Source: Candidatus Thorarchaeota archaeon (GTDB taxonomy: Archaea > Asgardarchaeota > Thorarchaeia > Thorarchaeales > Thorarchaeaceae). Taken from it: a stretch of DNA of 64,000 nucleotides. The stretch covers positions 43,460 through 107,459 of the forward strand of contig DXJO01000010.1 in NCBI GenBank assembly GCA_019057475.1, read 5' to 3'. Position 1 is the first letter of the stretch. Each line of letters begins with the position of its first letter. A program made the position numbers and the translations under genes. Below the pieces are notes generated by a model. It was not told the DNA's origin and searched no databases. It saw nothing but the letters and a program-made list of their open reading frames with translations. Positions 11,489 to 32,823 of the stretch are shown here, piece by piece.

Positions 11489-12481
11489 TTGTTTTCATTG
11501 ATGAATCTTGAAGAACTCGTTCGCTTCCTACTTAACTTCGAAGGGATATCACGGAAGTTCGTCCTCCCCAGTATCATTAACAAGCTCAGGCGGGACTCGT
11601 ATGGCGGCGACATCTCTCACTCTCTGGGCGAGGATTCCGCTGCCATTGGGACCGACTGCGATGACTTTATTCTTCTAACAACAGATGCAATCGTTGAGGA
11701 TCTCTGCATAAACAACCCTCATGCGGCTGGGTTCAACGTTGTGTTGGCAAATGTCATGGACATATACGCAGCAGGTGGGATCCCTAACTCCTTTGCTGTC
11801 GCACTCTCATACTCTGATTCTCACATTGGTGAAATGATGCTCCAAGGCTTGATAGATGCCTCACACTCATTCAGAGTCCCGATAGTAAGAGGGCATACGA
11901 ATCCTGCTTCAACGTCAACCTATGTGGTTGGGTCCTCTACTGGGAGCGTTCTGAAGGAGGAACTGCTCACGGCAGGAGGTGCACTTCCTGGCGATTCGCT
12001 TATCCTCCTCTTTGACAAGGTCGGCAATAGAGGGCGTGCATATGAATTGGGTTGGGACTCGGTTACCGGTTGTGAGTCTTCAGTTATTGTAGAGCGACTA
12101 TCTGTGATGAATGATTTAGCTCATAAACAGCTTCTCAACGCGTCGAAGGATGTTTCCGTCGCTGGGCTTGTCGGAACTGCCGGTATGCTTGTCGAATATT
12201 CCGGAATGGGTGGAGTGATTGACATTGATGCAGTAGAAACCTCGCGACCTAAGTCAATTCCGCTCACTGACTGGTTGCGGATGTACATCTCACTTGGCTT
12301 TCTTGTATCAGTTTCACATGCCAACATCAGTGCTGTGAGGAAAGTCGCAGAAGATCACGGGATGACGATGACTGAGGTTGGCGTGGTTGATAACTCAACA
12401 TCTTTGAGATTGAGAAGAGGTTCGGAGGAAGTGATTATGTTCGACTTCTCAAAGGGACCGATTCTTACGCCTCGTGGTTAG
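11489..12481 (+). CDS. AIR-synthase-related (PurM-superfamily) protein, ThiL/HypE-like.
   Basis: GEDSAAIG...LLTTDAIVED...VMDIYAAGG PurM-type motifs. Confidence 0.5.
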   Translation: MFSLMNLEELVRFLLNFEGISRKFVLPSIINKLRRDSYGGDISHSLGEDSAAIGTDCDDFILLTTDAIVEDLCINNPHAAGFNVVLANVMDIYAAGGIPNSFAVALSYSDSHIGEMMLQGLIDASHSFRVPIVRGHTNPASTSTYVVGSSTGSVLKEELLTAGGALPGDSLILLFDKVGNRGRAYELGWDSVTGCESSVIVERLSVMNDLAHKQLLNASKDVSVAGLVGTAGMLVEYSGMGGVIDIDAVETSRPKSIPLTDWLRMYISLGFLVSVSHANISAVRKVAEDHGMTMTEVGVVDNSTSLRLRRGSEEVIMFDFSKGPILTPRG

Positions 12482-12539
12482 CGTGTTGACTACGTTGCCG
12501 TCATAGTTATAATGGTGCCAGACTGGTTCATCAATTGAA

Positions 12540-12770
12540 GTGACAGCCTTGGATAAATCGGGTAAGAAGACCTGCAGCATAGTGGGATGCAATAAGGATT
12601 CAAAGAGGGCATTCGCTACTACTCGGATTGCTGAGAGCGTCGCGAGCACGGGTCTAAAAGTGAAAGACACGCGGTCCCGGAAGACTTACCTGTGTCAGGA
12701 CCACTGGAAGATAGTAAAGAAGGCTTTCAAGAAGGATACCAAGGCTGAACGCATGCGTTGGGGGCATTAA
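12540..12770 (+). CDS. Small basic Cys/His protein (putative Zn-binding).
   Basis: CSIVGCNKD...CQDHW. Short ORF between two genes. Confidence 0.3.
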   Translation: MTALDKSGKKTCSIVGCNKDSKRAFATTRIAESVASTGLKVKDTRSRKTYLCQDHWKIVKKAFKKDTKAERMRWGH

Positions 12771-12826
12771 AGCAAATAGACCCCTCTCGATTTCGCTACA
12801 CCCTTGGGAACTCTTGAGATGGGAGG

Positions 12827-13183
12827 ATGGGCCGGGTGGACAAAGATGCTGGCAGGGTTGAGAACCTAAAGCCAAATTACAAGCTGTGGCTTGAACAGGA
12901 TGGCCAGTATGTGTTTGGACTGGGCGCCTATAACATTTTGAAGAGCATCCACGAAGCGGGAACCATCACTGAGGGGGCCAAGGCTTTGAGTATGTCTTAT
13001 CGATATGCTTGGGGTGTGATCAAGAAAATCGAAATCACACTTGGTGTCAAATTGCTTGAAACTTACAAGGGGGGCAACGTTGGCGGTGGGGGCGCTAGAG
13101 TCACCGAACATGGGTTGAAGCTCATGAAGATGTTCGATGGTGCTAGGACTGCTGTAGACAAAGCATTCAGGAAAAGCCCCTAG
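12827..13183 (+). CDS. ModE-type N-terminal winged-HTH regulator (molybdate/tungstate-responsive family, no TOBE domains).
   Basis: AKALSMSYRYAW...KGGNVGGGGARVTEHG matches the ModE N-terminal signature. Confidence 0.55.
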   Translation: MGRVDKDAGRVENLKPNYKLWLEQDGQYVFGLGAYNILKSIHEAGTITEGAKALSMSYRYAWGVIKKIEITLGVKLLETYKGGNVGGGGARVTEHGLKLMKMFDGARTAVDKAFRKSP

Positions 13184-13189
13184 GAATAT

Positions 13190-14257
13190 CTACGCGAATC
13201 TGAACACGATGGCATTGTTCGGACAGTGGCTCTTGCACTCAAGACACATTATGCAGTCTGCAGAATGCATGTGCTGATATGGGAATTTCCGTATTCGGAT
13301 ATTCATCGGGCAAACAACTTCACACACATTGCAAGTGTCCGGTGTGCATAACGCAGGATTCCTACCGATTCCTATCAATGCGTCTCGCGAGAATATACCA
13401 TAGAACCAACCTGCCGGGCAGAGCCATCTGCAGAACCATCTTGGGAACCAGATTGCCACAATCGCGACAAGAACTGCGAATATGAGTTGCAACCAGAACA
13501 CAAGACCCCAAGTCTGTAGAATCCACAAGCTGTCAAATCCTGTAGGCCATATCTGCTCCGAAGCAAGTACAAAGATAATGTATGCGGGGTTAAAGGGATC
13601 AAAGGGCGCAATGGCAAGAGGACCCAGTAATTCAACGAGAGCATCTGCTGTGCCCAACGCACGACTTATGCCCACCCACAAAGCCAGAAACACCACAAAG
13701 AAGAAGACATACGCCTTCAACTTGCGCAGTTCGCTTTCTGTTCCAGGAGCGGGACGAATCTTGCTTCTGTTTGGAAGGGTAGCAAAATCTTGGATTGTAC
13801 CAATGGGACAAATCCATCCGCATGCAGACCTGCCCAGAATCACTAGGATAATGAGCATCGCACCCAGCGTGAAGAATGGAAATGATGCACTAGTGAACTC
13901 CCTTAGCATTGTGTCGAAGGATCCAGCCATCACAGCAAAAGGCGCCTCCAAGGGCGCGATGATTGGCAATGTTGGAAGGTACTCCGCCACGGAAGTCCAA
14001 AAGTCGGTAAGCCAGTCTAGACCCCACCAAGCGGCGAAGATGTAGCCATTGATGGCAACAAAGAACAGTATCTGAACTACTCGGCGTAGCATTCTCACAT
14101 TGAATATCAGTCCAAGCGGATTCGACAGAGTTGACCTTTTGAATCTCGAAGGCGCTTCGCTCTTCTCTTCTTTAGTAGCGATGTCTTCTGGTTCGGCCTC
14201 TTCTTCTACTTCATTTGCGTCTTCAGGCCTTTTGACATCCTCTGCCATAGAATTCAA
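13190..14257 (-). CDS. NapH/MauN-like membrane polyferredoxin.
   Basis: TM helices with CGWICPIGT and CRWLCPAGW half-sites. C-terminal 2x CxxCxxCxxxCP ferredoxin motifs. 40-aa acidic N-terminal tail. Confidence 0.6.
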   Translation of the reverse strand: MNSMAEDVKRPEDANEVEEEAEPEDIATKEEKSEAPSRFKRSTLSNPLGLIFNVRMLRRVVQILFFVAINGYIFAAWWGLDWLTDFWTSVAEYLPTLPIIAPLEAPFAVMAGSFDTMLREFTSASFPFFTLGAMLIILVILGRSACGWICPIGTIQDFATLPNRSKIRPAPGTESELRKLKAYVFFFVVFLALWVGISRALGTADALVELLGPLAIAPFDPFNPAYIIFVLASEQIWPTGFDSLWILQTWGLVFWLQLIFAVLVAIVAIWFPRWFCRWLCPAGWFYGIFSRDALIGIGRNPALCTPDTCNVCEVVCPMNIRIRKFPYQHMHSADCIMCLECKSHCPNNAIVFRFA

Positions 14258-14347: not shown

Positions 14348-14752
14348 CTACAACTCGGTAAAAATCAACTCGATGATGCCTGCAACCATTGCAATGTGCA
14401 TCAGATGTGGTCCTGATCTACTGGGAGATTGCAAGGAGATTGGATGGCTGTAGCCCTCTTCCCACGTAGTAATCAGTCCCCCTGAGCTTTGAAATGATAC
14501 AGTGAGAGTTGACCCCTCTGCAGAAACAGTCACACCGGTGGGGATATTGATCTCAATGATAGTGTTGTTTGCTCCCGTGTCCACAAGCTGGGTCTCGTTA
14601 TGAACTCGTTCTGAGAAATTCTGTGCTAACTCGAGCTGGGTGGCGTTTCCCAACGTGTCGACTGCGAACAGCAGAATCGGGATTCCAACAAGCACAACTG
14701 TCGTGAGGCCGATGGCAATCAACATCAGCTTCTCTAGAGACCGTGACACCAT
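14348..14752 (-). CDS. Hypothetical membrane-anchored protein (pilin/class-III-signal-like N-terminus).
   Basis: Charged N-terminus, then a hydrophobic helix, then a T/S/N-rich beta-rich region. Confidence 0.3.
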   Translation of the reverse strand: MVSRSLEKLMLIAIGLTTVVLVGIPILLFAVDTLGNATQLELAQNFSERVHNETQLVDTGANNTIIEINIPTGVTVSAEGSTLTVSFQSSGGLITTWEEGYSHPISLQSPSRSGPHLMHIAMVAGIIELIFTEL

Positions 14753-14851
14753 AACTAGTTGTTATGCGGGCCTCCCAATAAACTGCTCTAAGCTGAATAG
14801 TCATGACCAAGGTTTTAACACCGCTCACGCACATTGCTTGGATGAATAGAA

Positions 14852-16249
14852 ATGGAGCAGCTGATTCCTGTCCATGTAGGCCTGCTTGGTCACATCGACC
14901 ATGGCAAGACTGAGCTAGCTAGAGCTTTGAGCGAAAAGGTCTCCACAGCTGGCTTGGACGGCCATCCGCAGGCCAAGAGCCGAGGCATTACGATAGATCT
15001 TGGCTTCTCAATGTTCGTGTTGGACAATTATCTTGTTACGCTCGTTGACGCTCCCGGTCATGCAGATCTCATTAGGAGCGTTGTATCCGGGACGAACATA
15101 ATTGACGCTGCAATCCTGACAGTCGCTGCCAACGAAGGACCCATGGTGCAAACAGGAGAGCACATTGTGGTTCTCCAGTCCATGGGAATTGACACTGTAA
15201 TTGTTGCGATAACCAAGGTCGACTTGGTCGATAGCGAAGTGCTCGCCAAGGTCATTGAGAGGACAAAAAGTGCATTGAGCGATTCAGGAGTGTCGACTGA
15301 CTATTTCATCCCGATTTCCGCTACTACTGGCTTAGGCATTGAACAGCTCAAGGATGCACTGGCTGCAATCCTAGAGCCTCGACAGCGTGACGTGAAAGGT
15401 TCCTTACTGATGCCGATAGACCATGCGTTTCCAATCAAGGGCCATGGCACAGTTCTTACTGGCACGATTCTACGTGGTCAGGTTTCAGTTGGAGACACTA
15501 TACAGGTGATGCCTCAAGGTTCAATGGCTAAAATCAGATCCCTGCAAACATACGGCGACGAGCGTAGAACTGCGAAGGCAGGCGACAGAGTGGGCGCCAA
15601 TATCCCCGACTTGGATGACAAGATGATTAGTCGCGGTGATTATGTGTGCACTCCAGGCTCCATGACAAAGACAACAGGGATCATTGCCCGTATTCGTATC
15701 AACCCGCTGTATCGTGGCAGAGTGACAAGCAGAATGGTGCTTAACGCCACGGTGGGTATGCCGAATGTGATATCAGAGATTATTCCATTTGAGACCGAGA
15801 ATGATATCCGCATCGCCGTTTCAGACATTGGAAATGATGAGTTTGACGCGGCCATTTTGTTCAAGAGGATAATTGGCACAGAACTTGGACTCCGGCTTCT
15901 TCTAATGCGCACTGATCTGCCTCCTACAGTCATGCGGATAATCGGCGCAGGCGAAGTCACGGATATTCCTACGGAAATTCGCTTGTTTAAGAAGAAGGTC
16001 CGGGTTGGCAGGGTGTCCCGAATTCGTGAGGCCGACGTGCTGGTCGAGGGGCTTGCCTCCAAGAAGGAGATTGCTGACTCACTCAAGGGTGTTTTTATCA
16101 AGACACGGAATGATGTGAAAGGAGTGATTGAACAGCCCTTTGGCACACGTGGAGTAGTGTCAGCTACATTTGATAACCCCGTGGAAGAAGGTGAAGATAT
16201 CATCTATGAGCGGCTGGGTAAAGAGGAGGTATATCGATTTGGACAATGA
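14852..16249 (+). CDS. selB: Selenocysteine-specific elongation factor (archaeal aSelB/eEFSec type).
   Basis: GHIDHGKT, DAPGH, ITKVD GTPase motifs and RGITIDLGF. About 465 aa with a short domain IV. Its 3' end overlaps SepSecS. Confidence 0.75.
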   Translation: MEQLIPVHVGLLGHIDHGKTELARALSEKVSTAGLDGHPQAKSRGITIDLGFSMFVLDNYLVTLVDAPGHADLIRSVVSGTNIIDAAILTVAANEGPMVQTGEHIVVLQSMGIDTVIVAITKVDLVDSEVLAKVIERTKSALSDSGVSTDYFIPISATTGLGIEQLKDALAAILEPRQRDVKGSLLMPIDHAFPIKGHGTVLTGTILRGQVSVGDTIQVMPQGSMAKIRSLQTYGDERRTAKAGDRVGANIPDLDDKMISRGDYVCTPGSMTKTTGIIARIRINPLYRGRVTSRMVLNATVGMPNVISEIIPFETENDIRIAVSDIGNDEFDAAILFKRIIGTELGLRLLLMRTDLPPTVMRIIGAGEVTDIPTEIRLFKKKVRVGRVSRIREADVLVEGLASKKEIADSLKGVFIKTRNDVKGVIEQPFGTRGVVSATFDNPVEEGEDIIYERLGKEEVYRFGQ

Positions 16250-17555
16250 TATCGAAAAACGGTTGACTGACCTTATACCTGAAAACATGGCCCGTCGCGG
16301 CCGCATCACGATTGACGCATTATTGGCTCCAGTGAAGGACATTCTAAACAGACAGAGATTCCCTGACAGGCCTCTCACGGAACGTCAGGTGGAGCTGATG
16401 TTTACACTCCTCTCTTCAATGGATACCGATAAGGATCCCGCAGCTGCCCGGGTTGGCGAAAGAGAAGGTCGAACTATCTCGCCTCTTCTTGATCGTCTAT
16501 CTGCTGGTTTCAACCACGGAATTGGCCGAAGCGGCCACCTCATGGCGCCGCAACCAAAGGCTGCAGGTGCCTCTCTGATGCAGCAGGTGACAAATCATGT
16601 TGCCCTTGATGCTATTCGACGGTTAGGCCTTGAGAACGTCCGGGCAGGATTAGTTACCCCCTTGTCAACTGGAATGAGCATTGCTCTGATACTTGGCGCA
16701 TTGCGTCGCACCTTGGGCATCAAAGAAGTTCTCTATCCGCGTATTGATCATGCATCTCCTCGTCGGGCGATTTCATTCGCTGGTCTTCAGGAAATTCGCG
16801 TTTCCACGATTCTTGAAGGAGATGCAGTGCGGGTTGATCTTGCAGAGCTTGAAAGCCGTCTGTCAAAGAGAAATGAAGCAGCTGTACTTGCCACAACCAC
16901 GTTCTTTCCCCCTCGCGAGTCGGACCCGGTGAAAGATATCGCCAAGCTGTGCGCTGAGAGTGGTGCTCCCTTAGTAATCAATAACGCCTATGGGGTTCAA
17001 TCGGAAGCCATCATGCATAGTATTCGATCTGCAATAGATGCGGGACGAGTTGATGCAGTGGTTCAGAGCAGCGACAAGAATTTTCTCACTCCTGTCGGAG
17101 GATCCATTATTGTTTCACCAGACAAGGAGATTATCGATAGTACTGCTGAAACATATGCAGGCAGAGCCACTGCAGCGCCGGTTGTTCAGACCCTTGCAGC
17201 ATTGTTACTGACTGGCCACGAGGAGTATACACGACTTCAAGCTGAGCAGATTGAAAACCTCACTTACTTGAGGGAACAACTGAGCTCCGTTGCTGACTCA
17301 ATAGGACAAAGACTGTTGGAGGTCGAGAACCACGTGGCATGTGCTATGACTCTGAATGGTCTGAATGCAAGAGAGATAGGTGCTCGGCTCTACAACTTGA
17401 GAGTGACAGGGCCGCGCGTTGTGGAAAAGGGAGAAGAGGGGTCTTCCGTTGATAACTATCCCCACGACTACATCGTGATGAACGCAGCGATAGGAGCGAA
17501 GAGAGAACATATAGAGCAAGCTGCAGTGAAGCTTCATAAGGCGGCCAGTAAGTAG
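16206..17555 (+). CDS. spcS: O-phosphoseryl-tRNA(Sec) selenium transferase (SepSecS).
   Basis: Colinear with SepSecS as I recall the M. jannaschii sequence: ARVGEREGR, GIGRSGHLMAPQPKAAGAS, TTFFPPRESD, VVQSSDKNFLTPVGG (PLP lysine region), YNLRVTGPR, HDYIVMNAAIG. Confidence 0.85.
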   Translation: MSGWVKRRYIDLDNDIEKRLTDLIPENMARRGRITIDALLAPVKDILNRQRFPDRPLTERQVELMFTLLSSMDTDKDPAAARVGEREGRTISPLLDRLSAGFNHGIGRSGHLMAPQPKAAGASLMQQVTNHVALDAIRRLGLENVRAGLVTPLSTGMSIALILGALRRTLGIKEVLYPRIDHASPRRAISFAGLQEIRVSTILEGDAVRVDLAELESRLSKRNEAAVLATTTFFPPRESDPVKDIAKLCAESGAPLVINNAYGVQSEAIMHSIRSAIDAGRVDAVVQSSDKNFLTPVGGSIIVSPDKEIIDSTAETYAGRATAAPVVQTLAALLLTGHEEYTRLQAEQIENLTYLREQLSSVADSIGQRLLEVENHVACAMTLNGLNAREIGARLYNLRVTGPRVVEKGEEGSSVDNYPHDYIVMNAAIGAKREHIEQAAVKLHKAASK

Positions 17556-17585
17556 TCCAGACAGCTTGAACGGAGGGCCAAAAGC

Positions 17586-18236
17586 TTGAATGAGCTTGAA
17601 GGCAATGTGAAGGTTTCACGCACACACGAATACGAGAAGACTGACCCGGTCACAGTTTTCAAACTTGCATGGTATGCAATAGCATCAAAGCCAGGTGTCT
17701 TGCTGGCTGATCACAGCGAGGCCGAGAGTCAATCATTCAAAGGTGAAGCAATGTTCACCGCGAAGATTGACCAGAAGCCCATCAAAATAAAGGTCGATGT
17801 CGACGAGGAACAAGGTTCTGTTGAGATGACTGGATGGGGCGAAGATGAAGTTGCCCTCGGCACCTATCTGGATGGTGCAATGGATGCCCTGAAAAAGTCC
17901 AGCGACAAGTATCTCAGTCTTGCAGATGAAGAAAAACAAAAGATCCGAAGAGCACTCATTGCAAAGACGTGCTGGGATCGGATTATCCACAAGATACTCA
18001 ACAAGGCTCCACTCAGCGACATCTATTTCCAGCTGGCACATGGCAGAGAGATGATGATCAAGGCGACTGAAGGTGATGAACTCAACCCAATCACACTCAC
18101 CACGAGTGGATGGTTATCACGGATAGAGCCACTGCCTAAGGACGAGGCACCTCCTGCGGGTCTTGCTACGGAACTGGCAAAGAAATGCATCGAGTGGAAG
18201 AGGGGCACACAGGAAGTCATTCAGAACTTTCTCTAA
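17586..18236 (+). CDS. Hypothetical protein embedded in the Sec locus.
   Basis: 216-aa ORF with normal composition and no known motif. Confidence 0.4.
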   Translation: MNELEGNVKVSRTHEYEKTDPVTVFKLAWYAIASKPGVLLADHSEAESQSFKGEAMFTAKIDQKPIKIKVDVDEEQGSVEMTGWGEDEVALGTYLDGAMDALKKSSDKYLSLADEEKQKIRRALIAKTCWDRIIHKILNKAPLSDIYFQLAHGREMMIKATEGDELNPITLTTSGWLSRIEPLPKDEAPPAGLATELAKKCIEWKRGTQEVIQNFL

Positions 18237-18403
18237 ATGCAGTGTCGATTACGTACGTCGGATTGATTTTAACATACACAATGCATTATCAACTGCAGTA
18301 ACAACATCCGCACTCTACGCAATCATTCGATGTAGACTCAAAGTGAAATTGGCATTAGTCCCGAAAGGTTTCAGTGATATGGGCCTTCGTGAAGAACGCG
18401 GGC

Positions 18404-18787
18404 CTAGCTGTGCTTCTTATGTAACGTGATAGATCCCCCTGCGTGGGGGAATGCTTCAACCTCAATAAGGAATGGGTTCCGCGATTCACCGACCTTTGTC
18501 CACATGACCTGATCGCGACGATAGTATCTGTAATCTGCGCCATTATGTCGAATCTCAATCATTGATGTGGGAGGAAGATCGCTAAGGGATGCAATCTCCA
18601 ACTTTTCTCCGGCTCTGGTCTGCTTGGGCTGAGAAAGGAAGACTGGAAAGATTTCATCATTGATAGGTACAAGCAATGCCACATGCGGACGGTCTACGCA
18701 GTCCCAGAGTTTCGGAACTGGGGGTGTCCTGCACGAGAATGCTCCATATGATGAGCTTAGAGCTTGGAAGATACCTGCATCAATCAC
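18404..18787 (-). CDS. Hypothetical protein.
   Basis: 127-aa ORF. An AT-rich putative promoter lies 5' of it at 18800-18900. Confidence 0.3.
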   Translation of the reverse strand: MIDAGIFQALSSSYGAFSCRTPPVPKLWDCVDRPHVALLVPINDEIFPVFLSQPKQTRAGEKLEIASLSDLPPTSMIEIRHNGADYRYYRRDQVMWTKVGESRNPFLIEVEAFPHAGGSITLHKKHS

Positions 18788-19044
18788 GTGACTCTGGTCT
18801 CCATCGAGTTCCTTGCATGACCCATTCCTAGAGTAAGGAATTACTGTGATATATTAATAATAGATAGCATATAACTATTTATAGTAATTGGTTTGTCATC
18901 TCCACGCAATGGCACACACCTTGGATGCCCATGAACTCCCTTTCCCCGCACGATATCTCTGAGAAATAAGAACCAGGCACATACAACTTCGCATCACAGT
19001 ATGCTACCCTCAGATTTAAGTCGCAATCACGATATTCTGCATTT

Positions 19045-19135
19045 GGCCCCCTACAGAGCTGGTGGTCTGGTTCCGTGGGCTTCAAACCCATGATCGTGCA
19101 AGCGATAAGAGTTCGATTCTCTTAGGAGGCCGCCA
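19045..19135 (+). tRNA. tRNA-Sec (anticodon UCA), folded by hand.
   Basis: Acceptor GGCCCCCTA pairs with TAGGAGGCC (19123-19131), with one C.A mismatch. G73 is at 19132 and CCA is encoded at 19133-19135. D arm is CAGAGC-TGGT-GGTCTG. Anticodon stem is 6 bp, CGTGGG/CCCATG. Anticodon loop is CTTCAAA, with TCA at 19082-19084. Variable hairpin is ATCG-TGCAAG-CGAT. T arm is AGAG-TTCGATT-CTCT. TTTAAG TATA-like box at 19015-19020. Confidence 0.7.
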
Positions 19136-19163
19136 TAGCCGTTTTCCACAAATCTCTCTCTTC

Positions 19164-19928
19164 TCATAGCAGAGCTTGCAGTTCCTTCAGAATAACATCT
19201 CTCGCCATCTTGGGACTAATCTTATCGTAGGCTGCACGTTTGAGAACTCTTAGTCGGATGATGGATACTTCTCGGTTTCCACGTAACTCGGGGTGATTCT
19301 GAAGAAATCCTGATACCGTGTTTCTAGTGGCAAGGTCCAGCTTTTCGAATTCATTATCACCTGCAAGAGTTGACTTCGGTTGCCTGATGACTTCGAGTGA
19401 GCGAATGGTATTCACAATTTCGCTGACAGTAGAATCAAGATCAGGAGTGGACATATCCACTTCAGCAAGGGGGCAATCCCACAGGTATCGAGCCCCGGGT
19501 CTGTCGAATCTTTCACTGATTCGTTGGATGACATGATCCGGAATCCTTGTGCCGGGTCTCTCTCTATTCCACTTGAGTGCCTCTTCAAGGGGCGTTGTCA
19601 CATGGATTATCCCAAATGCACACTTCGCGTCAATAGCGATCTCTAGAAGCTCATGCCGCATGCTATTGTAGTAATTTGTATCGTCGTGAATCACACTCTT
19701 TCCTTTGCTAACGAGCGTTTCCACTCTTGCTAATGCAGCCTGACGTACCTCACCCTCCTTCTCCGGCACGAAATCTGAGTAGTAGGTATCATCTCGCCAT
19801 TCATCAGTTCTGACAACCTCAACTTCAGGCCCTTTCGAATGAACTGCTAATCTAATTGCATCTGCCAGAGATGATTTTCCAGATGCTGGTAGCCCACAAA
19901 GGGCTAGTATGAACTGATTCATTGGCAA
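19164..19928 (-). CDS. pstk: L-seryl-tRNA(Sec) kinase (PSTK).
   Basis: ALCGLPASGKSS P-loop, VIHDDTNYYNSMR, RERPGTRIP and FDRPG are colinear with archaeal PSTK as I recall the MJ1538 sequence. Confidence 0.8.
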   Translation of the reverse strand: MPMNQFILALCGLPASGKSSLADAIRLAVHSKGPEVEVVRTDEWRDDTYYSDFVPEKEGEVRQAALARVETLVSKGKSVIHDDTNYYNSMRHELLEIAIDAKCAFGIIHVTTPLEEALKWNRERPGTRIPDHVIQRISERFDRPGARYLWDCPLAEVDMSTPDLDSTVSEIVNTIRSLEVIRQPKSTLAGDNEFEKLDLATRNTVSGFLQNHPELRGNREVSIIRLRVLKRAAYDKISPKMARDVILKELQALL

Positions 19929-20009: not shown

Positions 20010-20951
20010 CTATGGTTTGATTGTGATTTGGAGGTTAATAGCGAGATCCTTGTAGCGGTTTCTCACCGTGACTTCTGTCACGTTGGATGCCTCTGCAATC
20101 TCACGCTGCGTGCGTCTGTCATTCTCGATGATACCAGCAATGTACAACGCTGCAGCCGCCAGACCACCCGGATCCTTGCCTGCGGTGAGGCCTCTAGCCC
20201 TCGCATTGTTGATTATACCTATTGCAGTCTGGACTGTCTTGCCCTCCAATGCTAGGTCTGAGGATATTCTAGGCATTAGGTCGTTTGCAGATGCTAGGGG
20301 AACCTTCAATTTGACGTTGCGTAGGATAAGCCTTACGCACTGGCCAAGCTCCTTCCTGTTGATTCTCGCCTCAGTCACTACCTCATCCAACTGGCGCGGA
20401 ATCTTGTGAATTCTGCACGAGAGGTAAATCGATGCCGCAACCATTCCCTCAATGCTCCTACCTCTGACCAACCGTGTGTTCAGGGCTTTCCGGTAAACGA
20501 GGGCCGCTGTTTCCTTGGTTTCATGAGGAACGCCCAGTTGGGATGTAAGGCGATCCATCTCACTCATTGCGATGCTGAGATTCCTGTGTTGAGAGCTGTG
20601 CACCATGGTCCGAATTTGCCACTTGCGCATTCGATAGATTGCTGCACGCTGGCTAGCTGCAATTGAGCGTCCGCTGGCATCTCTATCGCTCCAACCAATG
20701 GTCGTTGCAAGACCCTTGTCTGCCATCGTTAGTGTCATTGGTGAACCTGTTCTGGCTCGAGCATTTCTCTCTTCAGCAGTGAATGCTCTCCATTCGGGAC
20801 CAGTATCTACATGCCTATCACTGATCACACACCCGCACGACGTGCAGGTTTTCTCACCCCGGCTGCTGTCTTGGTAAAACTCGTTGCCACCACAGATGGT
20901 GCAAACTCTCATACCTGTTTTTCTATCTATAGCACGGACTGGTTTCGCCAT
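20010..20951 (-). CDS. tfb: Transcription initiation factor IIB (TFB), paralog 2.
   Basis: Zn ribbon CTICGG...CTSCGC plus cyclin repeats. About 55% identical to the TFB at 2177..3145. Confidence 0.9.
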   Translation of the reverse strand: MAKPVRAIDRKTGMRVCTICGGNEFYQDSSRGEKTCTSCGCVISDRHVDTGPEWRAFTAEERNARARTGSPMTLTMADKGLATTIGWSDRDASGRSIAASQRAAIYRMRKWQIRTMVHSSQHRNLSIAMSEMDRLTSQLGVPHETKETAALVYRKALNTRLVRGRSIEGMVAASIYLSCRIHKIPRQLDEVVTEARINRKELGQCVRLILRNVKLKVPLASANDLMPRISSDLALEGKTVQTAIGIINNARARGLTAGKDPGGLAAAALYIAGIIENDRRTQREIAEASNVTEVTVRNRYKDLAINLQITIKP

Positions 20952-21268
20952 GTATGTTCACCTATTCGTCTTCCTCTCTGGATGTGGTCCCACAAAAGGG
21001 CCTACAATCAGCGATTAAAACTGCACTCCGAGAAGAAGCGCCTCGCGAATCGCAGGACTTTCTGTATATAAGTGTAAGCATCGGTCCTCTGATGTACTAG
21101 CCTTGTCGCTTATTCTTTCAGAGAAAAACACTATATCCTCACTATATACAAGGATTTGACACAAAATGCACCTATGCTCCGGGATTAGAACACCAACGTG
21201 GGAGTCCTGAACACGACCCCGATGGACGGAACCGACCCGTTCTTATTCGGGTAGAGGTTTGTACTACC

Positions 21269-22153
21269 ATGCCAAAGGCGAAGGTCAATAACACAGAGAT
21301 TGAGTATGAAACAATCGGGGACCCCATCTCGAAACCGCTGCTATTGATAGCGGGACTGGGAAGTCAGATGCTTGCTTGGTCGGATGAGTTGTGCGAAAGT
21401 CTTGCAAATCGCGGTTTCTTTGTCATCAGATTCGACAACCGAGATGTGGGCTTGTCAACGAAATTTGAAGATGCAGGTTTGCCGGATTTTGTGAAGATTA
21501 ATGATGCCTATGCTCGTGGAGAAAAACCCGATGTACCATACACTTTAGAGGACATGGCCGGTGATGCCGTTGGTGTCTTGGATGCTCTGAATATAGATAA
21601 GGCACACGTCTGCGGTGCTTCCATGGGTGGAATGATCGCACAGGTTCTAGCATATAGACATCCATCTCGGGTGCAATCTCTCACGTTAATCATGAGCACG
21701 ACTGGAAATCCCGACCTACCACAAGGGAAGCCAGAAATCATGGCGCAATTCTTTGCACCCGTTCCTTCCGAACGCGAGGCATTTATTGAAGAAACGGTCC
21801 GGCGAGGTCGTCTCATACACGGCACTTTTGCTTATGATGAGGATCAATCAAAAGAGTATAGAGCAAAAGAGTACGACCGCAGTTATTATCCCGAAGGGAC
21901 AATACGCCAATTAGCAGCAATGGCTGTTCCCGGTAATCTGAAACCCGAACTTGCTGCAATACGAGCGCCTACGCTTGTTATCCATGGGAGGGAAGATCCA
22001 TTTTACCCTGTTGAAGCAGGTAACGACATCGCAACAGCGATACCCGGAGCGGAATTATTGATTTTGGATGGAATGGGACATAGTTTTCCTCATGAAGTCA
22101 TGCCACGTATTGTAACCGCACTAGTTGAGAATAGCAACAAGAATGGCAATTAG
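21269..22153 (+). CDS. Alpha/beta-hydrolase fold protein.
   Basis: GASMGG nucleophile elbow and an HG-type oxyanion region. A C-terminal His is present. Confidence 0.6.
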   Translation: MPKAKVNNTEIEYETIGDPISKPLLLIAGLGSQMLAWSDELCESLANRGFFVIRFDNRDVGLSTKFEDAGLPDFVKINDAYARGEKPDVPYTLEDMAGDAVGVLDALNIDKAHVCGASMGGMIAQVLAYRHPSRVQSLTLIMSTTGNPDLPQGKPEIMAQFFAPVPSEREAFIEETVRRGRLIHGTFAYDEDQSKEYRAKEYDRSYYPEGTIRQLAAMAVPGNLKPELAAIRAPTLVIHGREDPFYPVEAGNDIATAIPGAELLILDGMGHSFPHEVMPRIVTALVENSNKNGN

Positions 22154-22277
22154 AAAGTACACTAATCATATACAAAGAGTTAGTCAAACTATAACAAACC
22201 TACAGACTTTCAATCTGTAATCTGTGCTCATTTCAGGTGATAATAGCGTAGTTCAATAGATATTAAGTAAAACAGCC

Positions 22278-23219
22278 TTGCAAACCTACCCAAACCAACT
22301 GGGAGGTCTTTGGATGAATACACGCTCTGATTCCAGTCGATTCAGTATCATTACCAATCCGACCGATGATGAGGTGAAAGAATTCCAGAAAGGATTAGAC
22401 GCCTATAATATGGGACGGACTAATGGAGAGTTCAATAGTCCTAAAGACTGGATTAGTCTAGTTCTCAAAGACGATGAGGGTAATATCGTAGGAGGGATTA
22501 CGACTAGTACGATATTCTGGGCCCAGTATCTTGAGGTTCTCTGGGTAAATGATAAATATCGAGGACTTGGTTATGGAAGAGACCTCGTTCTTGAAGCAGA
22601 GAGATTAGCGAAGAAAAACGGATGCATAACCTCACACACGTATACGTTTTCGTGGCAAGCACCTGATTTCTATCAAGCAGTTGGGTACAAGCTCATAGCT
22701 ACCTATGAAGGATACATCGATGGCATTACAGAACTTATCCTTATGAAACGACTAGATACGATTGATAATGTATCAACCCAGAAGGTAGATTCCACTCGAT
22801 TTGCTATCTCTGAAGATTCGACTGAGGAATCACTGAGCATTGTCCGCAAAGGGCTCGGAAGTAATTTTGACCAGCACGTTAGTGATTCGCTTAAGGAACA
22901 TCCCCAAATCAGATACAAATTGGTCATTAAGAACGATGATGAGCAAGTGATTGGAGGACTGTGTGGTTATACTATCCTTGGGACCATGAATATAGAAGGA
23001 CTCTGGGTTGATGAGAGATATCGTGGTCAAGGTTATGGAACGGATCTCTTAATGCATGCAGAAAAACTTGCTAAAGAGAAAGGTTGTATTGCGGGCCAGA
23101 TAGCGTGCTTTTCATTTCAGGAACTTGATTTCTTGAAGAAACATGGATACAATACACACGGAGTTTCAGATGGGTATCCAGATGAAGTTAAGGAGTACTA
23201 TCTCATCAAGAAGTTTTAG
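22278..23219 (+). CDS. Tandem GNAT N-acetyltransferase.
   Basis: Two GNAT cores (RGLGYGRDLVLEAERLAKKNGC and RGQGYGTDLLMHAEKLAKEKGC). The gene is AT-richer than its neighbourhood. Confidence 0.6.
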   Translation: MQTYPNQLGGLWMNTRSDSSRFSIITNPTDDEVKEFQKGLDAYNMGRTNGEFNSPKDWISLVLKDDEGNIVGGITTSTIFWAQYLEVLWVNDKYRGLGYGRDLVLEAERLAKKNGCITSHTYTFSWQAPDFYQAVGYKLIATYEGYIDGITELILMKRLDTIDNVSTQKVDSTRFAISEDSTEESLSIVRKGLGSNFDQHVSDSLKEHPQIRYKLVIKNDDEQVIGGLCGYTILGTMNIEGLWVDERYRGQGYGTDLLMHAEKLAKEKGCIAGQIACFSFQELDFLKKHGYNTHGVSDGYPDEVKEYYLIKKF

Positions 23220-23290
23220 AGAAGGCTAGGTGGACATCCACAGAGAACTTCGCGAGTGCCCACCTGTTGTCAAATGTTTAGTTTGCTTGA

Positions 23291-23872
23291 CTAAGCTAGG
23301 CAAGCAATTTCAGTCACGACAGCTTCTGGTATGATGTGGATGTTTCCGTAGTATGTGTGGTTGGTTTCAGAAACCTCTGTCTTGGCACGTGCGATTTTAA
23401 TGAGGCCATTGCTCTTTCCTAGCAGGTAGCCAGCTATATACTGCAATGGCACTTGCTGCTTGTTGGCTTCTTCCTTGCTCATTGAGCAACACTCGACACC
23501 TGGACTCATGAAGGTCACCTCAACCATCTCATGCTCACCGCAGTTGTCCACGCGGTTGAGATGCTTGGTTCTCTCCTTGATCTGGTTCTTCCCTTGAATT
23601 CTGTGTACTTCATTCGCAGCGTAATGGAAAGGCTCACCCTTGAGTCTATGGATTGACGGCACAACATACATGGTTGTATCATTCAATGCTTCCACACTAT
23701 CATCACCACTATCCACGTAGGTCTTGTCCGAACTCTCGCCGACCAAGTACCGCACATGGTAGTGCTTGGCATCTACATTCTTGAACTCGTCAGCCTTGTC
23801 ATCCTTGATGCTAACGGATGTGTTTGCCCATAGTTCGACGGGCACAAATGGGTTTACTGTATTGTCTTTCAT
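23291..23872 (-). CDS. Hypothetical protein (possible cupin-like).
   Basis: ORF only. Confidence 0.3.
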   Translation of the reverse strand: MKDNTVNPFVPVELWANTSVSIKDDKADEFKNVDAKHYHVRYLVGESSDKTYVDSGDDSVEALNDTTMYVVPSIHRLKGEPFHYAANEVHRIQGKNQIKERTKHLNRVDNCGEHEMVEVTFMSPGVECCSMSKEEANKQQVPLQYIAGYLLGKSNGLIKIARAKTEVSETNHTYYGNIHIIPEAVVTEIACLA

Positions 23873-23905
23873 TGATAATCACCGCTTAACGATGGTTAAT
23901 ACTGC

Positions 23906-24565
23906 ATGTACTTAACGATGGTTATTTATAAGCTTTACGTTATAAACGCAACAGCACAAGTGGTGACGTCTATGTTCGAGCATCTAGCTATTGTTGCATC
24001 TGTCACAATCTTTGGCATTCAGCACAGCGGCATCTCGGCTCTCCGAGTGAAGCACTGGATCATTGACAGATGGGGGCAGAAAGGTTACTCTAGGATTTTC
24101 AATGTCACCTCCGTTCTAGCTCTAATCCCGGCTTCCTTGTCTCTCAACTACTGGGACTGGCTCTACTTTCTTCAATCTCCTGAACTAGTCAATCCTCTTC
24201 TCTTCCTTTCAGGAGTAATTCTTCTGGCGCTTGGCGTTGTGGTTGCCATATTGGCATCAAGGTCAATCTCAGTGAGCACAGTTGCAGATATGCGAACTGA
24301 CCGCAAGCCAGCTCTTGTGACCGGCGGACTCTATGCTCGAACGAGACATCCCCTCTACCTCGCGACTATCTTGTTCTTGTTGTCATTAGTCGCTTTCTAC
24401 CCGTTCTCCAACATACTAACGTTCTCATTGGCTTTCGTTGTCTATGTAGTCATAGGTGGATATCTCGAAGAGCGCAAGCTTGTTATTCAATATGGGACAG
24501 AGTATCTTACCTACCGTAAGACGACTGGTTTCCTATTGCCACGACTAAGTTCTCGGAATGACTGA
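23906..24565 (+). CDS. Isoprenylcysteine carboxyl methyltransferase (ICMT/PEMT) family membrane methyltransferase.
   Basis: ALVTGGLYARTRHPLYLA ... EE.L motif and multiple TM helices. Confidence 0.55.
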   Translation: MYLTMVIYKLYVINATAQVVTSMFEHLAIVASVTIFGIQHSGISALRVKHWIIDRWGQKGYSRIFNVTSVLALIPASLSLNYWDWLYFLQSPELVNPLLFLSGVILLALGVVVAILASRSISVSTVADMRTDRKPALVTGGLYARTRHPLYLATILFLLSLVAFYPFSNILTFSLAFVVYVVIGGYLEERKLVIQYGTEYLTYRKTTGFLLPRLSSRND

Positions 24566-26809: not shown

Positions 26810-27794
26810 GGCCCTGTTGAAAAAGTCACCTCCCGGCACACTCCAAGAAGTTGAGGCGTTCGATGTTGTGCAACACCACCTTGATCAGCAGCTCTCTTCG
26901 CCGCTCCATCCAACCCCTCGAACTCAGACTTCCTCCGTATCTCAGCTTCATCATGCCGAACACGGTTTCCACAAGGCTCCTTCTCCCGTACTGATGAGCT
27001 CTCTTCCACTCCTCAGGGTCTGCTCGATACTCCCTCATCAACCTCCCATATGCCCAGTGACTCTTTGAGTTGATGCTCGAAGTGCTCTTTGGCTCGATGG
27101 CGGGATATGCACCGATATCAGCTATGAACTGGACATTCCTCCTTGAGATGTATGCCTTGTCACCATAGACGGTCTCAAGACTACTCTTTGAGACCCTCCT
27201 GACCAGTGGGACCATGAACATTGGATCACCTCCCGGCTTACCTCTGACCCGAGTCGCATGGATCAACAGGGTGTCAGTGTCCACTGCGTTGTGAAGTGCA
27301 TGGAAACGCCTTCTACGGCTCTTCCTCAACCTCACAGAGAACCACTCTCCCCCAGTGGAGTGTGAGAACCCGGAGGAGTCCACGGCAATGTTCTCTGGAG
27401 GAGGTCTCTTCCGGGCAAGAAGTTCGTACATTCGATGAAGGAGTCCTGTGTCGACACGGGTCAGTGCCTTCTGAAGCAGGGAGTAGCTGGGAGCTCTCTC
27501 AAGGCCAAGATGGCTCAACAAGTGGGGGTTGAAGTTGACATGGGCTACGAAGTCACGGTAGCTGAGTCCGAGGTCGAACTTGAGTCCGAGAAGAACAAAG
27601 AGAGTGGGGAGCGGGAACTCGACAGGTCGACCGTGTCTGGATCTGGTGTCGGGGATGGTATTGCAAAGGCTGATAAGTTCGTTGAGCAGAAAGTGATAAC
27701 GGCGAGCCTTGGCCGCATCATGTGATGCATGGTAGGACATGAATCATGTGACGTTGCTGACTCGCCTCTGAATTCTTGTATTATTCAACAGGGC
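26810..27794. mobile_element. IS4/IS5-like insertion sequence, about 985 bp.
   Basis: 12-bp terminal inverted repeats GGCCCTGTTGAA (26810-26821) and TTCAACAGGGCC (27783-27794). They are flanked by a 9-bp direct repeat ATTCTTATC (26801-26809 and 27795-27803). Confidence 0.75.
26826..27740 (-). CDS. DDE transposase (IS4/IS5 family).
   Basis: AVDSSGF ... GDKAYISRRN ... SLVETVFGMMK residues form a DDE triad. Confidence 0.8.
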   Translation of the reverse strand: MSYHASHDAAKARRYHFLLNELISLCNTIPDTRSRHGRPVEFPLPTLFVLLGLKFDLGLSYRDFVAHVNFNPHLLSHLGLERAPSYSLLQKALTRVDTGLLHRMYELLARKRPPPENIAVDSSGFSHSTGGEWFSVRLRKSRRRRFHALHNAVDTDTLLIHATRVRGKPGGDPMFMVPLVRRVSKSSLETVYGDKAYISRRNVQFIADIGAYPAIEPKSTSSINSKSHWAYGRLMREYRADPEEWKRAHQYGRRSLVETVFGMMKLRYGGSLSSRGWMERRRELLIKVVLHNIERLNFLECAGR

Positions 27795-32313: not shown

Positions 32314-32805
32314 CTATCCCTCCTGGGGCAAGATGATTCTTCTTGCGTGCGTACCAGCGTTGTCAAGCCGCTTTGCAGTCGTTTCATGGTAGTCAGCTTC
32401 GAAGTCCGACAGCTCGCCAAAGACTAGCGCTTTTGAAGGGCAGACTTCCACACATGCGGGGTCTTTGCCAGCCTTCTGACGGTCGTAGCACATGTCGCAT
32501 TTCATGGTCTTCCGCGTCTTCTCATTGTAGATTGGAACCCCCCATGGACAAATCAATTCGCATGCACGACAACCGATGCACTTCTCATCGTCAATTAGCA
32601 CGATGCCATCTTCAATGTGGATTGCCTCAGTTGGACAGACCTTTTCGCAGGGAGCATCTTCACAATGTGCACAACGGAAAGGAACCGGAATTCCTTGGAA
32701 TTCATCCACATAGCACAATGATTCTCCATTCTCTCGGATACAGGCTTCGATGCATTCCTCACAGCCTAGGCAGCGATTCATGACTAGAAAGACATTTCGT
32801 GGCAT
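32314..32805 (-). CDS. 4x[4Fe-4S] ferredoxin-type protein (HycB/FwdF-like).
   Basis: Four CxxCxxCxxxCP-type motifs. Confidence 0.7.
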   Translation of the reverse strand: MPRNVFLVMNRCLGCEECIEACIRENGESLCYVDEFQGIPVPFRCAHCEDAPCEKVCPTEAIHIEDGIVLIDDEKCIGCRACELICPWGVPIYNEKTRKTMKCDMCYDRQKAGKDPACVEVCPSKALVFGELSDFEADYHETTAKRLDNAGTHARRIILPQEG

Positions 32806-32823
32806 TTTGGCACATCCAAGTTT

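Follow-up and report, generated by a model that had tools for sequence, protein, structure and literature searches.

The locus described here is, with high confidence, a vertically inherited chromosomal selenocysteine (Sec) locus of a Thorarchaeote, an Asgard archaeon, which is the best explanation of the evidence presented below. In the window (the whole 64-kb stretch of DNA that was analysed), positions 14852-19928 hold genes for an archaeal SelB, SepSecS, a tRNA-Sec(UCA) with a 9/4 fold, and PSTK. The Sec cluster is real and intact, but it is already known for the Thorarchaeote lineage. A sequence-only reading had proposed a Sec locus of the archaeal/eukaryal type. aSelB, SepSecS, tRNA-Sec, and PSTK were all identified, and every feature that the reading claimed was found where it had been placed, to within a few bases. 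It was also correct that all dedicated Sec parts except SelD lie within 5 kb: five Sec parts occupy this span, and no SelD is encoded in the window. The genes are laid out as selB-sepSecS-ORF216-tRNASec-pstk, flanked by a gene for a small membrane protein and by tfb. Thorarchaeota is the label carried by the closest source-named homologues and by related genome records, and the presence of tfb, a housekeeping gene, indicates that the host is an archaeon.

The first gene of the cluster (14852-16249, plus strand) codes for a 465-aa selenocysteine-specific elongation factor (aSelB, or EFSec). It matched the selB model TIGR00475 at 280.2 bits (cutoff 242.25) and also matched PF21440 (aSelB_III). 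Its identity as SelB was tested against other elongation and initiation factors, and the 280 bits for SelB compare with 128 for aIF2-gamma and 151 for EF-1alpha. The best solved relative is SelB from M. maripaludis (4AC9, E 1.9e-94), with which the protein aligns along its full length (residues 7-456); the match to human eEFSec reached 2.8e-51 and that to EF-Tu about 1e-40. The second gene (16206-17555, plus strand) codes for SepSecS, the O-phosphoseryl-tRNA(Sec) selenium transferase, and scored 458.8 bits with TIGR03531 (cutoff 224.85) and 394.5 bits with PF05889. The profile check suggested for these two proteins thus placed both above the cutoffs of their TIGR00475 and TIGR03531 models. SepSecS also aligned with PDB 2Z67 (E 5.7e-110), and the PLP-lysine context was confirmed by the aligned motif SSDKN.

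The sepSecS reading frame is open from 16170. Starting at ATG 16206 yields 449 aa and, with the selB stop codon at 16247-16249, the 44-nt overlap described in the sequence-only reading. In most relatives, the sole possible sepSecS start is a TTG inside selB, 11 nt short of its end. The counterpart in the window is TTG 16239 (438 aa), with AGGAGG upstream at 16223-16228. Because this TTG start is conserved among relatives and is preceded by AGGAGG, sepSecS probably begins at 16239 and overlaps selB by 11 nt rather than 44.

The kinase gene lies on the minus strand and codes for 252 aa if translated from ATG 19922 (19164-19922) or 254 aa from TTG 19928 (19164-19928). It is convergent with the tRNA-Sec gene and follows tfb, which shares its strand, at a distance of 87 nt. 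The PSTK gene, for an O-phosphoseryl-tRNA(Sec) kinase, had been placed at 19164-19928, 29 nt from the tRNA; these limits correspond to the TTG-start frame, but the gap is 28 nt (19136-19163) and ATG 19922 is an alternative start. Profile searches gave 126 bits with PF08433 (KTI12), the Pfam match, and just 134.5 of the 290.5 bits that the NCBIfam model for PSTK, TIGR03574, sets as its cutoff. These scores would fit an archaeal KTI12, an Elongator-associated ATPase, and the locus would then be without a Sec-specific kinase. We consider this extremely unlikely. At E ≤ 1e-3, M. jannaschii PSTK (3ADB and 3A4L, E 5e-23) supplied the only solved relatives, and no KTI12 structure was matched. The protein is colinear with 3ADB/3A4L over its full length, including the C-terminal domain, and keeps the M. 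jannaschii motifs GLPASGKSS, DDTNYYNSMR (identical), and FD.PG..Y.WD.P. The proximity of tRNA-Sec also argues against KTI12, as does the absence or truncation of the kinase gene alongside selB, sepSecS, and tRNA-Sec in seven Sec-negative relatives. The profile check gave a TIGR03574 score short of the cutoff, but the structural matches point to PSTK.

The tRNA-Sec(UCA) gene (19045-19135, plus strand) was called by ARAGORN and independently by Rfam RF01852 (52.1 bits, gathering score 47). Its acceptor stem is 9 bp long and its D stem 7 bp, closed by a loop of 4 nt; the anticodon stem, variable arm, and T stem have 6, 5, and 4 bp, respectively. G73 is present, and CCA is encoded. The 9/4 cloverleaf is the minimum-free-energy fold. 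Among 53 orthologues, pairing holds in 98.5% of cells and 16 of 31 pairs show compensatory changes, a level of covariation reached by none of 500 shuffles. The gene that had been folded by hand is thus backed by two programs and by covariation.

Certain observations could be taken to mean that the locus is decaying, a leftover in a genome that has stopped using selenocysteine. We found no selD, selenoprotein gene, or SECIS element within the 64-kb window, the acceptor stem of this lineage's tRNA-Sec contains a C5.A83 mismatch, and a close relative (L002) has lost the Sec system. However, every ORF is intact, and comparison with the related locus L004 shows that SelB, SepSecS, and PSTK are under purifying selection (dN/dS 0.16, 0.11, and 0.25, respectively). 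The two tRNA-Sec sequences are identical at 89 of 91 positions and share the mismatch. Decay is very unlikely, and we read the Sec system as active because of these dN/dS values of 0.11-0.25 and the near-identity of the tRNAs. We infer that this genome uses selenocysteine.

The steps of the archaeal/eukaryal Sec pathway are established, and the parts are assigned to them here by homology. An ordinary SerRS would charge tRNA-Sec (19045-19135) with serine, and PSTK (19164-19922, minus strand) would phosphorylate the resulting Ser-tRNA-Sec. SepSecS (16206/16239-17555) would then convert Sep-tRNA-Sec to Sec-tRNA-Sec using PLP and selenophosphate, the latter presumably supplied by a SelD encoded outside the locus. 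Finally, aSelB (14852-16249) would bring Sec-tRNA-Sec to UGA codons in mRNAs with a 3'-UTR SECIS. selB is the first gene of a putative selB-sepSecS-selAsg operon, in which these two genes and the 216-aa Sel_Asgard gene would be translationally coupled. The spacing is compatible with this arrangement: the selB/sepSecS overlap of 11 or 44 nt is followed by a 30-nt gap, and GGAGG precedes both internal starts. The divergent intergenic region between o134 and selB (14753-14851) presumably serves as the promoter region; an A/T-rich GGTTTTAACA lies there, about 31-40 nt upstream of the ATG of selB. Co-regulation, which the sequence-only reading had proposed for the cluster, may thus apply to the three operon genes, but tRNA-Sec and pstk stand apart as units of their own, the latter on the opposite strand.

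We compared the locus with those of its relatives. The order AIRS-o76-ModE-NapH-o134-selB-secS-selAsg-tRNASec-pstk-tfb recurs, and 45 of 67 related species-level loci contain the complete set of five Sec parts. According to the sequence-only reading, the Sec genes are dispersed in methanogens that use selenocysteine. The clustering is unusual compared with methanogens only; in Thorarchaeia it is the standard arrangement. At the left boundary, o134 (14348-14752, minus strand) codes for a small protein, hydrophobic in an N-terminal segment, that matched no family in Pfam, NCBIfam, or PHROGs. It is conserved in 55 of 67 loci and is not Sec machinery. At the right boundary, tfb (20010-20951, minus strand; NF001658, 417 bits) codes for transcription factor B, with a median identity of 84% across loci. 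Both genes keep their positions in Sec-negative relatives.

A horizontally mobile Sec island had also been suggested. The packing of five Sec parts into 5 kb, a DDE transposase gene about 7 kb away (26826-27740), and a low-GC stretch at 22-24 kb are compatible with this idea, but we found it hardly credible. At least 45 species-level relatives, and Sec-negative ones as well, share the flanking genes (o134 left, tfb right) and a syntenic backbone that extends further, and conserved backbone genes separate the cluster from both the transposase and the low-GC stretch. GC content across the cluster (0.46-0.52) is like that of the rest of the window, and no flanking or terminal repeats, mobility genes, or integrase were found at the cluster. 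The visible dynamics of the locus are repeated losses by deletion, with pseudogene remnants and no gains. A mobile island is thus close to refuted. Since the layout recurs complete in 45 of 67 loci, we conclude that the Sec cluster is an inherited Thorarchaeial feature.

The same parts make up the known Asgard Sec-encoding system (tRNA-Sec, PSTK, SecS/SepSecS, and EFSec/aSelB, with SelD elsewhere; Mariotti et al. 2016, PMC4989117; Sun et al. 2021, PMC9723677; ISME J 2024, PMC11227280). These studies report that 77.4% of Thorarchaeia use Sec and that, in the original Lokiarchaeum assembly, the Sec genes other than EFsec and tRNA-Sec were on separate contigs, whereas all five parts lie within 5 kb here. 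Asgard SECIS elements are eukaryote-like (PMC11227280). The Sec machinery of Methanococcales and Methanopyrus includes the nearest solved structure for each of the three enzymes (4AC9, 2Z67, and 3ADB), and its tRNA-Sec has the same 9/4 fold and long D stem. In the literature searched, we came across no paper that explicitly describes the conserved gene order of Thorarchaeia.

Two ORFs between sepSecS and tRNA-Sec had been described as uncharacterised. This holds for the second (18404-18787, minus strand), which codes for a 127-aa protein without a match in Pfam, NCBIfam, or PHROGs. It is a protein-coding gene (dN/dS 0.22-0.27, with third-position bias), and the stretch of about 800 bp that holds it, between the Sel_Asgard and tRNA-Sec genes, is a lineage-specific insertion. 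Only 15 homologues, all at least 52% identical, were found among 5.8 billion proteins, and the sole source-named one is from a Thorarchaeote. Most loci lack this gene, and in them the median distance from Sel_Asgard to the tRNA-Sec behind it is 46 nt. The orphan gene is lineage-restricted and does not belong to the conserved set of Sec cluster genes.

The first ORF (17586-18236, plus strand; 216 aa) belongs to a named family, NF045535 (Sel_Asgard), which it matched over the full model length at 225.4 bits (cutoff 132). Its TTG start codon lies 30 nt beyond the SepSecS stop and has GGAGG 9 nt upstream of it. All source-named members among 305 homologues are labelled as Asgard archaea (Thorarchaeota, Lokiarchaeota, Promethearchaeota/-archaeia, or Hodarchaeota). 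Only 29 representative clusters matched in a search of 1.84 billion proteins, and our homologue searches, this one included, found no named member outside Asgard, which distinguishes the family from the machinery shared with Methanococcales and Methanopyrus. The AF2 model (pLDDT 93.6 for the whole protein, 88.8 for the N-domain) shows a KA1/helix-grip-like domain and a helical bundle, with generic fold matches. The protein is acidic (median pI 5.1), and the family as a whole has no invariant Cys. On the basis of this fold and acidity, the most likely role of Sel_Asgard is to work with SepSecS as a binding or adaptor protein without catalytic activity.

The Sel_Asgard gene lies directly 3' of SepSecS in every Sec-positive locus examined, Thor-type and Loki-type. 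A hypothetical protein of this description, restricted to Asgard archaea, was noted beside secS, efSec, and pstk in 2024 (PMC11227280). In seven relatives, selB, sepSecS, tRNA-Sec, and pstk are gone from the locus (pstk being absent or truncated), but Sel_Asgard is intact in all seven. Sec-negative status here means absence at the locus. The seven loci fall in at least six places on the tree, indicating at least six separate losses, and remnants of selB, sepSecS, or pstk adjoin Sel_Asgard in three (L002, L046, and L030). In L028 and L029, the one Sec-negative sister pair tested, Sel_Asgard is under purifying selection, with the same dN/dS (0.096) as in Sec-positive pairs. The distant Sec-negative locus L070 keeps a trio of o134-like, Sel_Asgard, and TFB-like genes, with the o134 and Sel_Asgard homologues adjoining. 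We found no account of Sel_Asgard surviving Sec-gene deletion in the literature searched.

These patterns raise the possibility that Sel_Asgard is unrelated to selenocysteine and has a separate job, its gene having merely stayed beside sepSecS. We regard this explanation as doubtful, though worth serious consideration. Adjacency that persists over class-level divergence is usually a sign of functional coupling. The same-strand, close-set order of SepSecS and Sel_Asgard is found in Thor-type loci and in four Loki/Hod-type contigs, where nearly all other surroundings differ, and the genomes that keep Sel_Asgard were judged Sec-negative at the locus only. An adaptor role has a conceptual precedent in the transsulfursome's SepCysE and in PSTK-aSelB fusions (PMC8762117). 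Through such small adaptors without catalytic activity, or through fusion, the enzymes that handle Sep-tRNA are kept together and the Sep-tRNA routes to Sec and Cys stay separate. SepSecS and SepCysS both convert Sep-tRNA.

Retention in seven Sec-negative loci shows that Sel_Asgard does not strictly require the Sec genes. Because the gene outlives its Sec neighbours, the protein has, or can retain, a function independent of them, and it may combine this function with a role as an adaptor for SepSecS. The name of NF045535, "putative selenocysteine system protein", comes from gene neighbourhood. Since the gene persists without Sec neighbours, the label "Sec system protein" may be too narrow.

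We identified the proteins of the selenocysteine (Sec) cluster from family profiles and from alignments to solved structures. The 465-aa ORF at 14852-16249 (+) scored 280.2 bits against the NCBIfam selB model TIGR00475 (cutoff 242.25), and the sequence-only reading of a SelB-like elongation factor held, with the same ORF reaching at most 162 bits against EF-Tu, 151 against EF-1alpha and 128 against aIF2-gamma. The protein contains the archaeal SelB domain III (PF21440 aSelB_III, residues 276-371), and its best solved relative is SelB from M. maripaludis (4AC9, E 1.9e-94, residues 7-456), followed by human eEFSec (2.8e-51) and then EF-Tu (~1e-40). The PF21440 match and the 4AC9 alignment reveal the four-domain architecture of archaeal SelB, domains III and IV included. 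The sequence identifies this product as aSelB (EFSec), which is predicted to bind Sec-tRNA-Sec and deliver it in a SECIS-dependent manner. The second protein of the cluster, whose frame is open over 16170-17555 (+) with an ATG at 16206, matched the SepSecS model TIGR03531 at 458.8 bits (cutoff 224.85) across profile positions 1-443 of 444, and PDB entry 2Z67 with an E value of 5.7e-110. Its PLP-lysine context, S-x-D-K-N, is present as SSDKN at a site where the archaeal and mammalian enzymes align (query VQSSDKNFLTPVGG; 2Z67, VSSSDKNLLTPIGG; mammalian 3BC8, QSLDKNFMVPVGG). We take this lysine to be the Schiff-base residue in the solved structures. These alignments bear out the assignment of the protein as SepSecS, including its PLP-lysine.

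The kinase gene at 19164-19922/19928 (-; 252/254 aa) is filed as a divergent PSTK, with the caveat that its product missed the PSTK equivalog cutoff (TIGR03574, 134.5 bits vs 290.5). Pfam places the protein under KTI12. A PDB sequence search (E <= 1e-3) returned M. jannaschii PSTK as its only solved relatives (E 5e-23), with no match to KTI12 chains. Residues 4-251 of 252 are colinear with 3ADB through the C-terminal tRNA-binding domain. The P-loop GLPASGKSS aligns with GLPGVGKST of 3ADB, DDTNYYNSMR is identical between the two proteins, and the kinase segment FDRPGARYLWDCP aligns with FDEPGKKYKWDEP of 3ADB over the motif FD.PG..Y.WD.P. In Sec-negative relatives, pstk is absent or truncated along with the other Sec genes. 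We read the kinase as PSTK rather than KTI12; such co-loss, too, would not be expected for KTI12. It appears closer to PSTK than to this paralogue, and it is predicted to phosphorylate Ser-tRNA-Sec. The original call of PSTK thus survives the missed cutoff, on the strength of the 3ADB colinearity, the identical motif and the joint loss.

ARAGORN called a tRNA-SeC(tca) gene at 19045-19135 (+), and Rfam RF01852 matched it at 52.1 bits (gathering score 47); the two agree independently with the tRNA-Sec(UCA) that had been folded by hand. PSTK does lie close to this gene, at a distance of 28 nt rather than the 29 nt first reported. In the minimum free energy fold, the acceptor stem has 9 bp with a single C5.A83 mismatch, the D stem 7 bp closed by a loop of 4 nt, the anticodon stem 6 bp (presenting UCA), the variable arm 5 bp and the T stem 4 bp; G73 is present and CCA is encoded. 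The tRNA is of the archaeal/eukaryal 9/4 form. We tested covariation on an ungapped alignment of 53 orthologues, in which 98.5% of cells were paired and 16 of 31 pairs showed compensatory changes (acceptor stem 6/9, D stem 5/7, T stem 1/4). None of 500 shuffles matched this signal, and sliding the partners by one column collapsed it. The acceptor-stem C.A mismatch (19049/19127, tRNA-Sec positions 5/83) is common to the window and L004, a close Sec-positive relative; in other relatives the pair is U-A or C-G, and it is unpaired in only 2 of 42 distinct sequences.

SepSecS and PSTK are both present, and the SelA family of the bacterial-type route had no match among the window ORFs scanned, in keeping with the proposed archaeal/eukaryal route. 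SerRS, PSTK, SepSecS and aSelB act in sequence in the standard archaeal pathway. Here, SerRS would put serine on tRNA-Sec and PSTK would phosphorylate the resulting Ser-tRNA-Sec. SepSecS would then use selenophosphate, from a SelD presumably encoded elsewhere, to form Sec-tRNA-Sec, which aSelB would bring to UGA codons.

The layout of the cluster points to one operon and two separate units. The selB stop codon lies at 16247-16249, and the ATG at 16206 therefore gives the 44-nt overlap with sepSecS that had been reported. In most relatives the sole possible SepSecS start is a TTG that gives an 11-nt overlap with selB; the corresponding TTG in the window is at 16239, with AGGAGG 10 nt upstream. 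The third gene, selAsg, encodes a 216-aa protein, Sel_Asgard (17586-18236, +), and starts with TTG 30 nt past the SepSecS stop, with GGAGG 9 nt upstream. We infer that selB, sepSecS and selAsg form one operon, transcribed from the divergent intergenic region of 99 nt. The genes for tRNA-Sec and PSTK are separate units, and pstk lies on the minus strand 87 nt downstream of tfb (20010-20951, -). Co-regulation, as first suggested, may apply to the three-gene operon and would not extend to tRNA-Sec and pstk. Compared with L004, dN/dS was 0.16 for SelB, 0.11 for SepSecS and 0.25 for PSTK, and all three are under purifying selection.

The sequence-only reading also listed two uncharacterised ORFs. 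This description does not hold for 17586-18236, which belongs to a named family (NF045535), and stands for the 127-aa orphan at 18404-18787 (-). The orphan is a real gene, as its dN/dS (0.22-0.27) and third-position bias show. Among 5.8 billion proteins it has 15 homologues, none below 52% identity; a source name is given for a single one of these, and it is a Thorarchaeote. The gene lies within an insertion of ~800 bp; in most loci, the median distance from Sel_Asgard to the tRNA-Sec that follows it is 46 nt. A 70-aa ORF listed by gene callers at 18879-19091 (-) overlaps the 5' part of tRNA-Sec, has no family matches and is probably spurious.

We searched the 64-kb window for further signs of Sec use and found no selD, in line with the reported lack of SelD in the cluster, and no hdrA, frhA, fdh or SECIS. 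The SECIS search covered Rfam at E <= 5, whose models may not suit the Asgard SECIS type. An AIR-synthase-family gene at 11501-12481 was considered as a hidden SelD and rejected: it scored 38.9 bits against TIGR00476 (cutoff 125), its best match is methanogenesis-marker-2-like, its preceding stop is TAG, the Sec/Cys loop is absent, and the gene is also kept in Sec-negative loci. It belongs to an upstream block (11501-14248) that encodes this AIR-synthase-family protein (methanogenesis marker 2/sll0787-like), a 76-aa basic ORF, a ModE-like HTH protein and a NapH-like polyferredoxin membrane protein, and that is syntenic in ~50 relatives, Sec-negative ones included. The best in-frame TGA candidate, an aldehyde:ferredoxin oxidoreductase gene at 34647-36569 (-), ends in a genuine TGA stop with non-coding sequence beyond, and a six-frame scan of the window for U near Cys motifs yielded nothing beyond noise. 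The window has two aldehyde:ferredoxin oxidoreductase genes, both accompanied by a polyferredoxin partner, at 32314-38404 (-) and 42058-44510 (-), and no in-frame UGA is present in the genes of these two regions. Judging by its CNWC motif, a FlpD/MvhD-domain-ferredoxin fusion (32824-33951, -) carries Cys at the place that Sec would take in a selenoprotein form. Because the window is without selD and SECIS, the likely use of Sec by the source genome is read from the intact, selected genes together with the published distribution of the trait.

That distribution makes the cluster, as a Sec locus, ordinary. Use of the archaeal/eukaryal pathway is known from Asgard archaea, most Thorarchaeia among them; the Sec trait is reported in 77.4% of Thorarchaeia, and the Lokiarchaeota machinery is on separate contigs except for EFsec and tRNA-Sec (PMC4989117, PMC9723677, PMC11227280). 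An Asgard-only hypothetical protein near secS, efSec and pstk has also been described (PMC11227280). The locus is real, correctly named and already known for the lineage, and the description of a compact archaeal/eukaryal-type cluster is borne out by its ORFs, its tRNA-Sec and their families.

We compared the locus with its relatives by mapping the window proteins and tRNA-Sec onto 67 loci from a one-genome-per-species scan, nearly all labelled Thorarchaeota. The recurrent order is AIRS-like, o76, ModE-HTH, NapH-like (-), o134 (-), selB, sepSecS, selAsg, tRNA-Sec, pstk (-) and tfb (-), where o134 and tfb are the left and right boundary genes. All five Sec parts are present in 45 loci, 15 are incomplete (mostly at contig ends) and 7 lack the Sec genes. 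The site of the cluster is unchanged in at least 45 genomes. Its GC content is even (0.46-0.52) and resembles that of the surroundings, no flanking repeats were found around it, and no integrase or transposase lies between o134 and tfb. The TFB gene indicates an archaeal host. The suggestion of a horizontally mobile trait or island does not fit these data: since the order recurs, GC is even, and repeats and mobility genes are absent, the cluster is an inherited Thorarchaeial feature.

In one Thor clade (L016, L023, L034), selB-sepSecS-selAsg is intact, and tRNA-Sec, pstk and tfb were not found in the available 10 kb (L016, L023) or ~2 kb (L034) 3' of Sel_Asgard. In this clade, the cluster's right half has moved or been lost. 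Relative to the divergent loci L076 and L079, the window carries an extra alpha/beta hydrolase, double-GNAT protein and 193-aa ORF between tfb and a NnrU/PEMT-like gene, and GC drops to 0.41-0.43 in this region (21000-24000). A DDE transposase (26826-27740, -) has inserted ahead of LeuRS. All of these insertions are local and lie outside the Sec cluster. A second TFIIB-repeat protein (2411-3145, +) matched cyclin-like repeats only, with no zinc ribbon match at E <= 1e-4; a short TFB-like gene beside Sel_Asgard in the distant locus L070 is similar to it.

The locus serves well as a clean and complete reference for the Thorarchaeial arrangement, and it opens onto the question of accessory proteins. 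Sel_Asgard matched NF045535 ("putative selenocysteine system protein") at 225.4 bits (cutoff 132) over positions 2-195 of the 195 in the profile. The family is small; a search of 1.84 billion proteins gave 29 representative clusters at E <= 1e-3, and all homologues with a source name are labelled as Asgard archaea, mostly Thorarchaeota. In a confident AlphaFold model (pLDDT 93.6), a beta-alpha-beta4 domain at the N terminus precedes five long helices. The protein is acidic (median pI 5.1), and none of its Cys residues is invariant throughout the family. Invariant or near-invariant columns in the Thor-type and distant alignments correspond to Y147, D131, R154, E155, W204 and K205 of the window protein. 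A PDB sequence-profile search with the family gave no meaningful match, and sequence-profile and fold comparisons detected no homology to SepCysE. Sel_Asgard resembles a binding module more than it does an enzyme or a classic RNA-binding protein.

The family name rests on adjacency to Sec machinery genes. Sel_Asgard directly follows SepSecS in the window, in all 59 of the related loci with a SepSecS gene, and in L074-L079. On the Loki/Hod-type contigs L074, L075, L077 and L078, a 226-228-aa homologue sits directly after SepSecS, aSelB is ~3-5 kb upstream on the opposite strand, and the other neighbours are unlike the Thor arrangement. Two more divergent lineages (L076, L079) have a Thor-like cluster. 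Adjacency to SepSecS is therefore the sole constant where Sec genes exist, being kept across both contexts. In L075, a tRNA-Sec (6267-6359, +) lies immediately 5' of SepSecS, so that the order runs tRNA-Sec, SepSecS, Sel_Asgard. L075 also has a Vps28-like gene ~7 kb downstream, and Sel_Asgard has a Vps28-CTD-like fold match; this is probably a coincidence.

Our interest lies mainly in how Sel_Asgard behaves across a natural deletion series, an NCBIfam model for this accessory ORF being already available. Seven related loci are Sec-negative (L002, L019, L028, L029, L030, L046 and L062), being without selB, sepSecS, tRNA-Sec and pstk, and in all seven a full-length Sel_Asgard remains, flanked by o134 and tfb. 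In the Sel_Asgard protein tree these loci occupy at least 6 separate places. Remnants of the Sec genes persist in three: L002 (7899-10386) has SelB residues 1-101 fused to SepSecS 328-449 and keeps PSTK 1-60, L046 (9557-9947) has frameshifted SelB and SepSecS fragments, and L030 (9764-9873) has SepSecS fragments. The losses happened in place. Each required deletions on both sides of Sel_Asgard, and the gene was spared every time. In the Sec-negative sisters L028 and L029, dN/dS for Sel_Asgard is 0.096 at a dS of 0.275, compared with 0.06-0.24 in Sec-positive pairs. The distant Sec-negative locus L070 also kept homologues of o134 and Sel_Asgard and a TFB-like gene. The o134 gene (14348-14752, -; 134 aa, an N-terminal hydrophobic segment, no family match) is always divergent from selB, adjoins Sel_Asgard directly in Sec-negative genomes and L070, and has a comparatively high dN/dS of 0.39. 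It was rejected as a conserved Sel_Asgard partner beyond the Thor type, being present in L070 but absent from Loki-type contexts.

Sel_Asgard is spared and, in the sister pair, under constraint; it has a selectable function that is independent of its Sec neighbours, with the caveat that Sec absence was judged at the locus. These losses, at least six in number, provide new comparative evidence on the only candidate accessory protein, and they argue that the label "selenocysteine system protein" is incomplete at best.

Our best guess is that Sel_Asgard may be an adaptor that acts with SepSecS and with another client. SepCysE and the PSTK-aSelB fusions provide a conceptual precedent (PMC8762117). 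The protein could instead be unrelated to Sec and merely syntenic, which we consider a real but minority possibility: its survival in Sec-negative loci would suit this explanation, and its place beside SepSecS in both Thor and Loki/Hod contexts would not. Taking the adaptor further, Sel_Asgard might be an unrecognised core factor of Asgard Sep-tRNA metabolism, one that docks onto SepSecS and perhaps onto PSTK, aSelB or SelD, channels Sep-tRNA-Sec or selenophosphate, and serves a second, Sec-independent client such as a paralogous SepCysS route. Such a client would explain why the gene survives deletion of the Sec genes. We regard this full proposal, taken as a whole, as unlikely. We know of no archaeal partner of SepSecS or aSelB and, to our knowledge, Asgard archaea have eukaryote-like SECIS elements and no SBP2. 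If the core-factor proposal is true, Sel_Asgard would go some way to filling the gap that the missing SBP2-, SECp43- and SepCysE-type partners leave.
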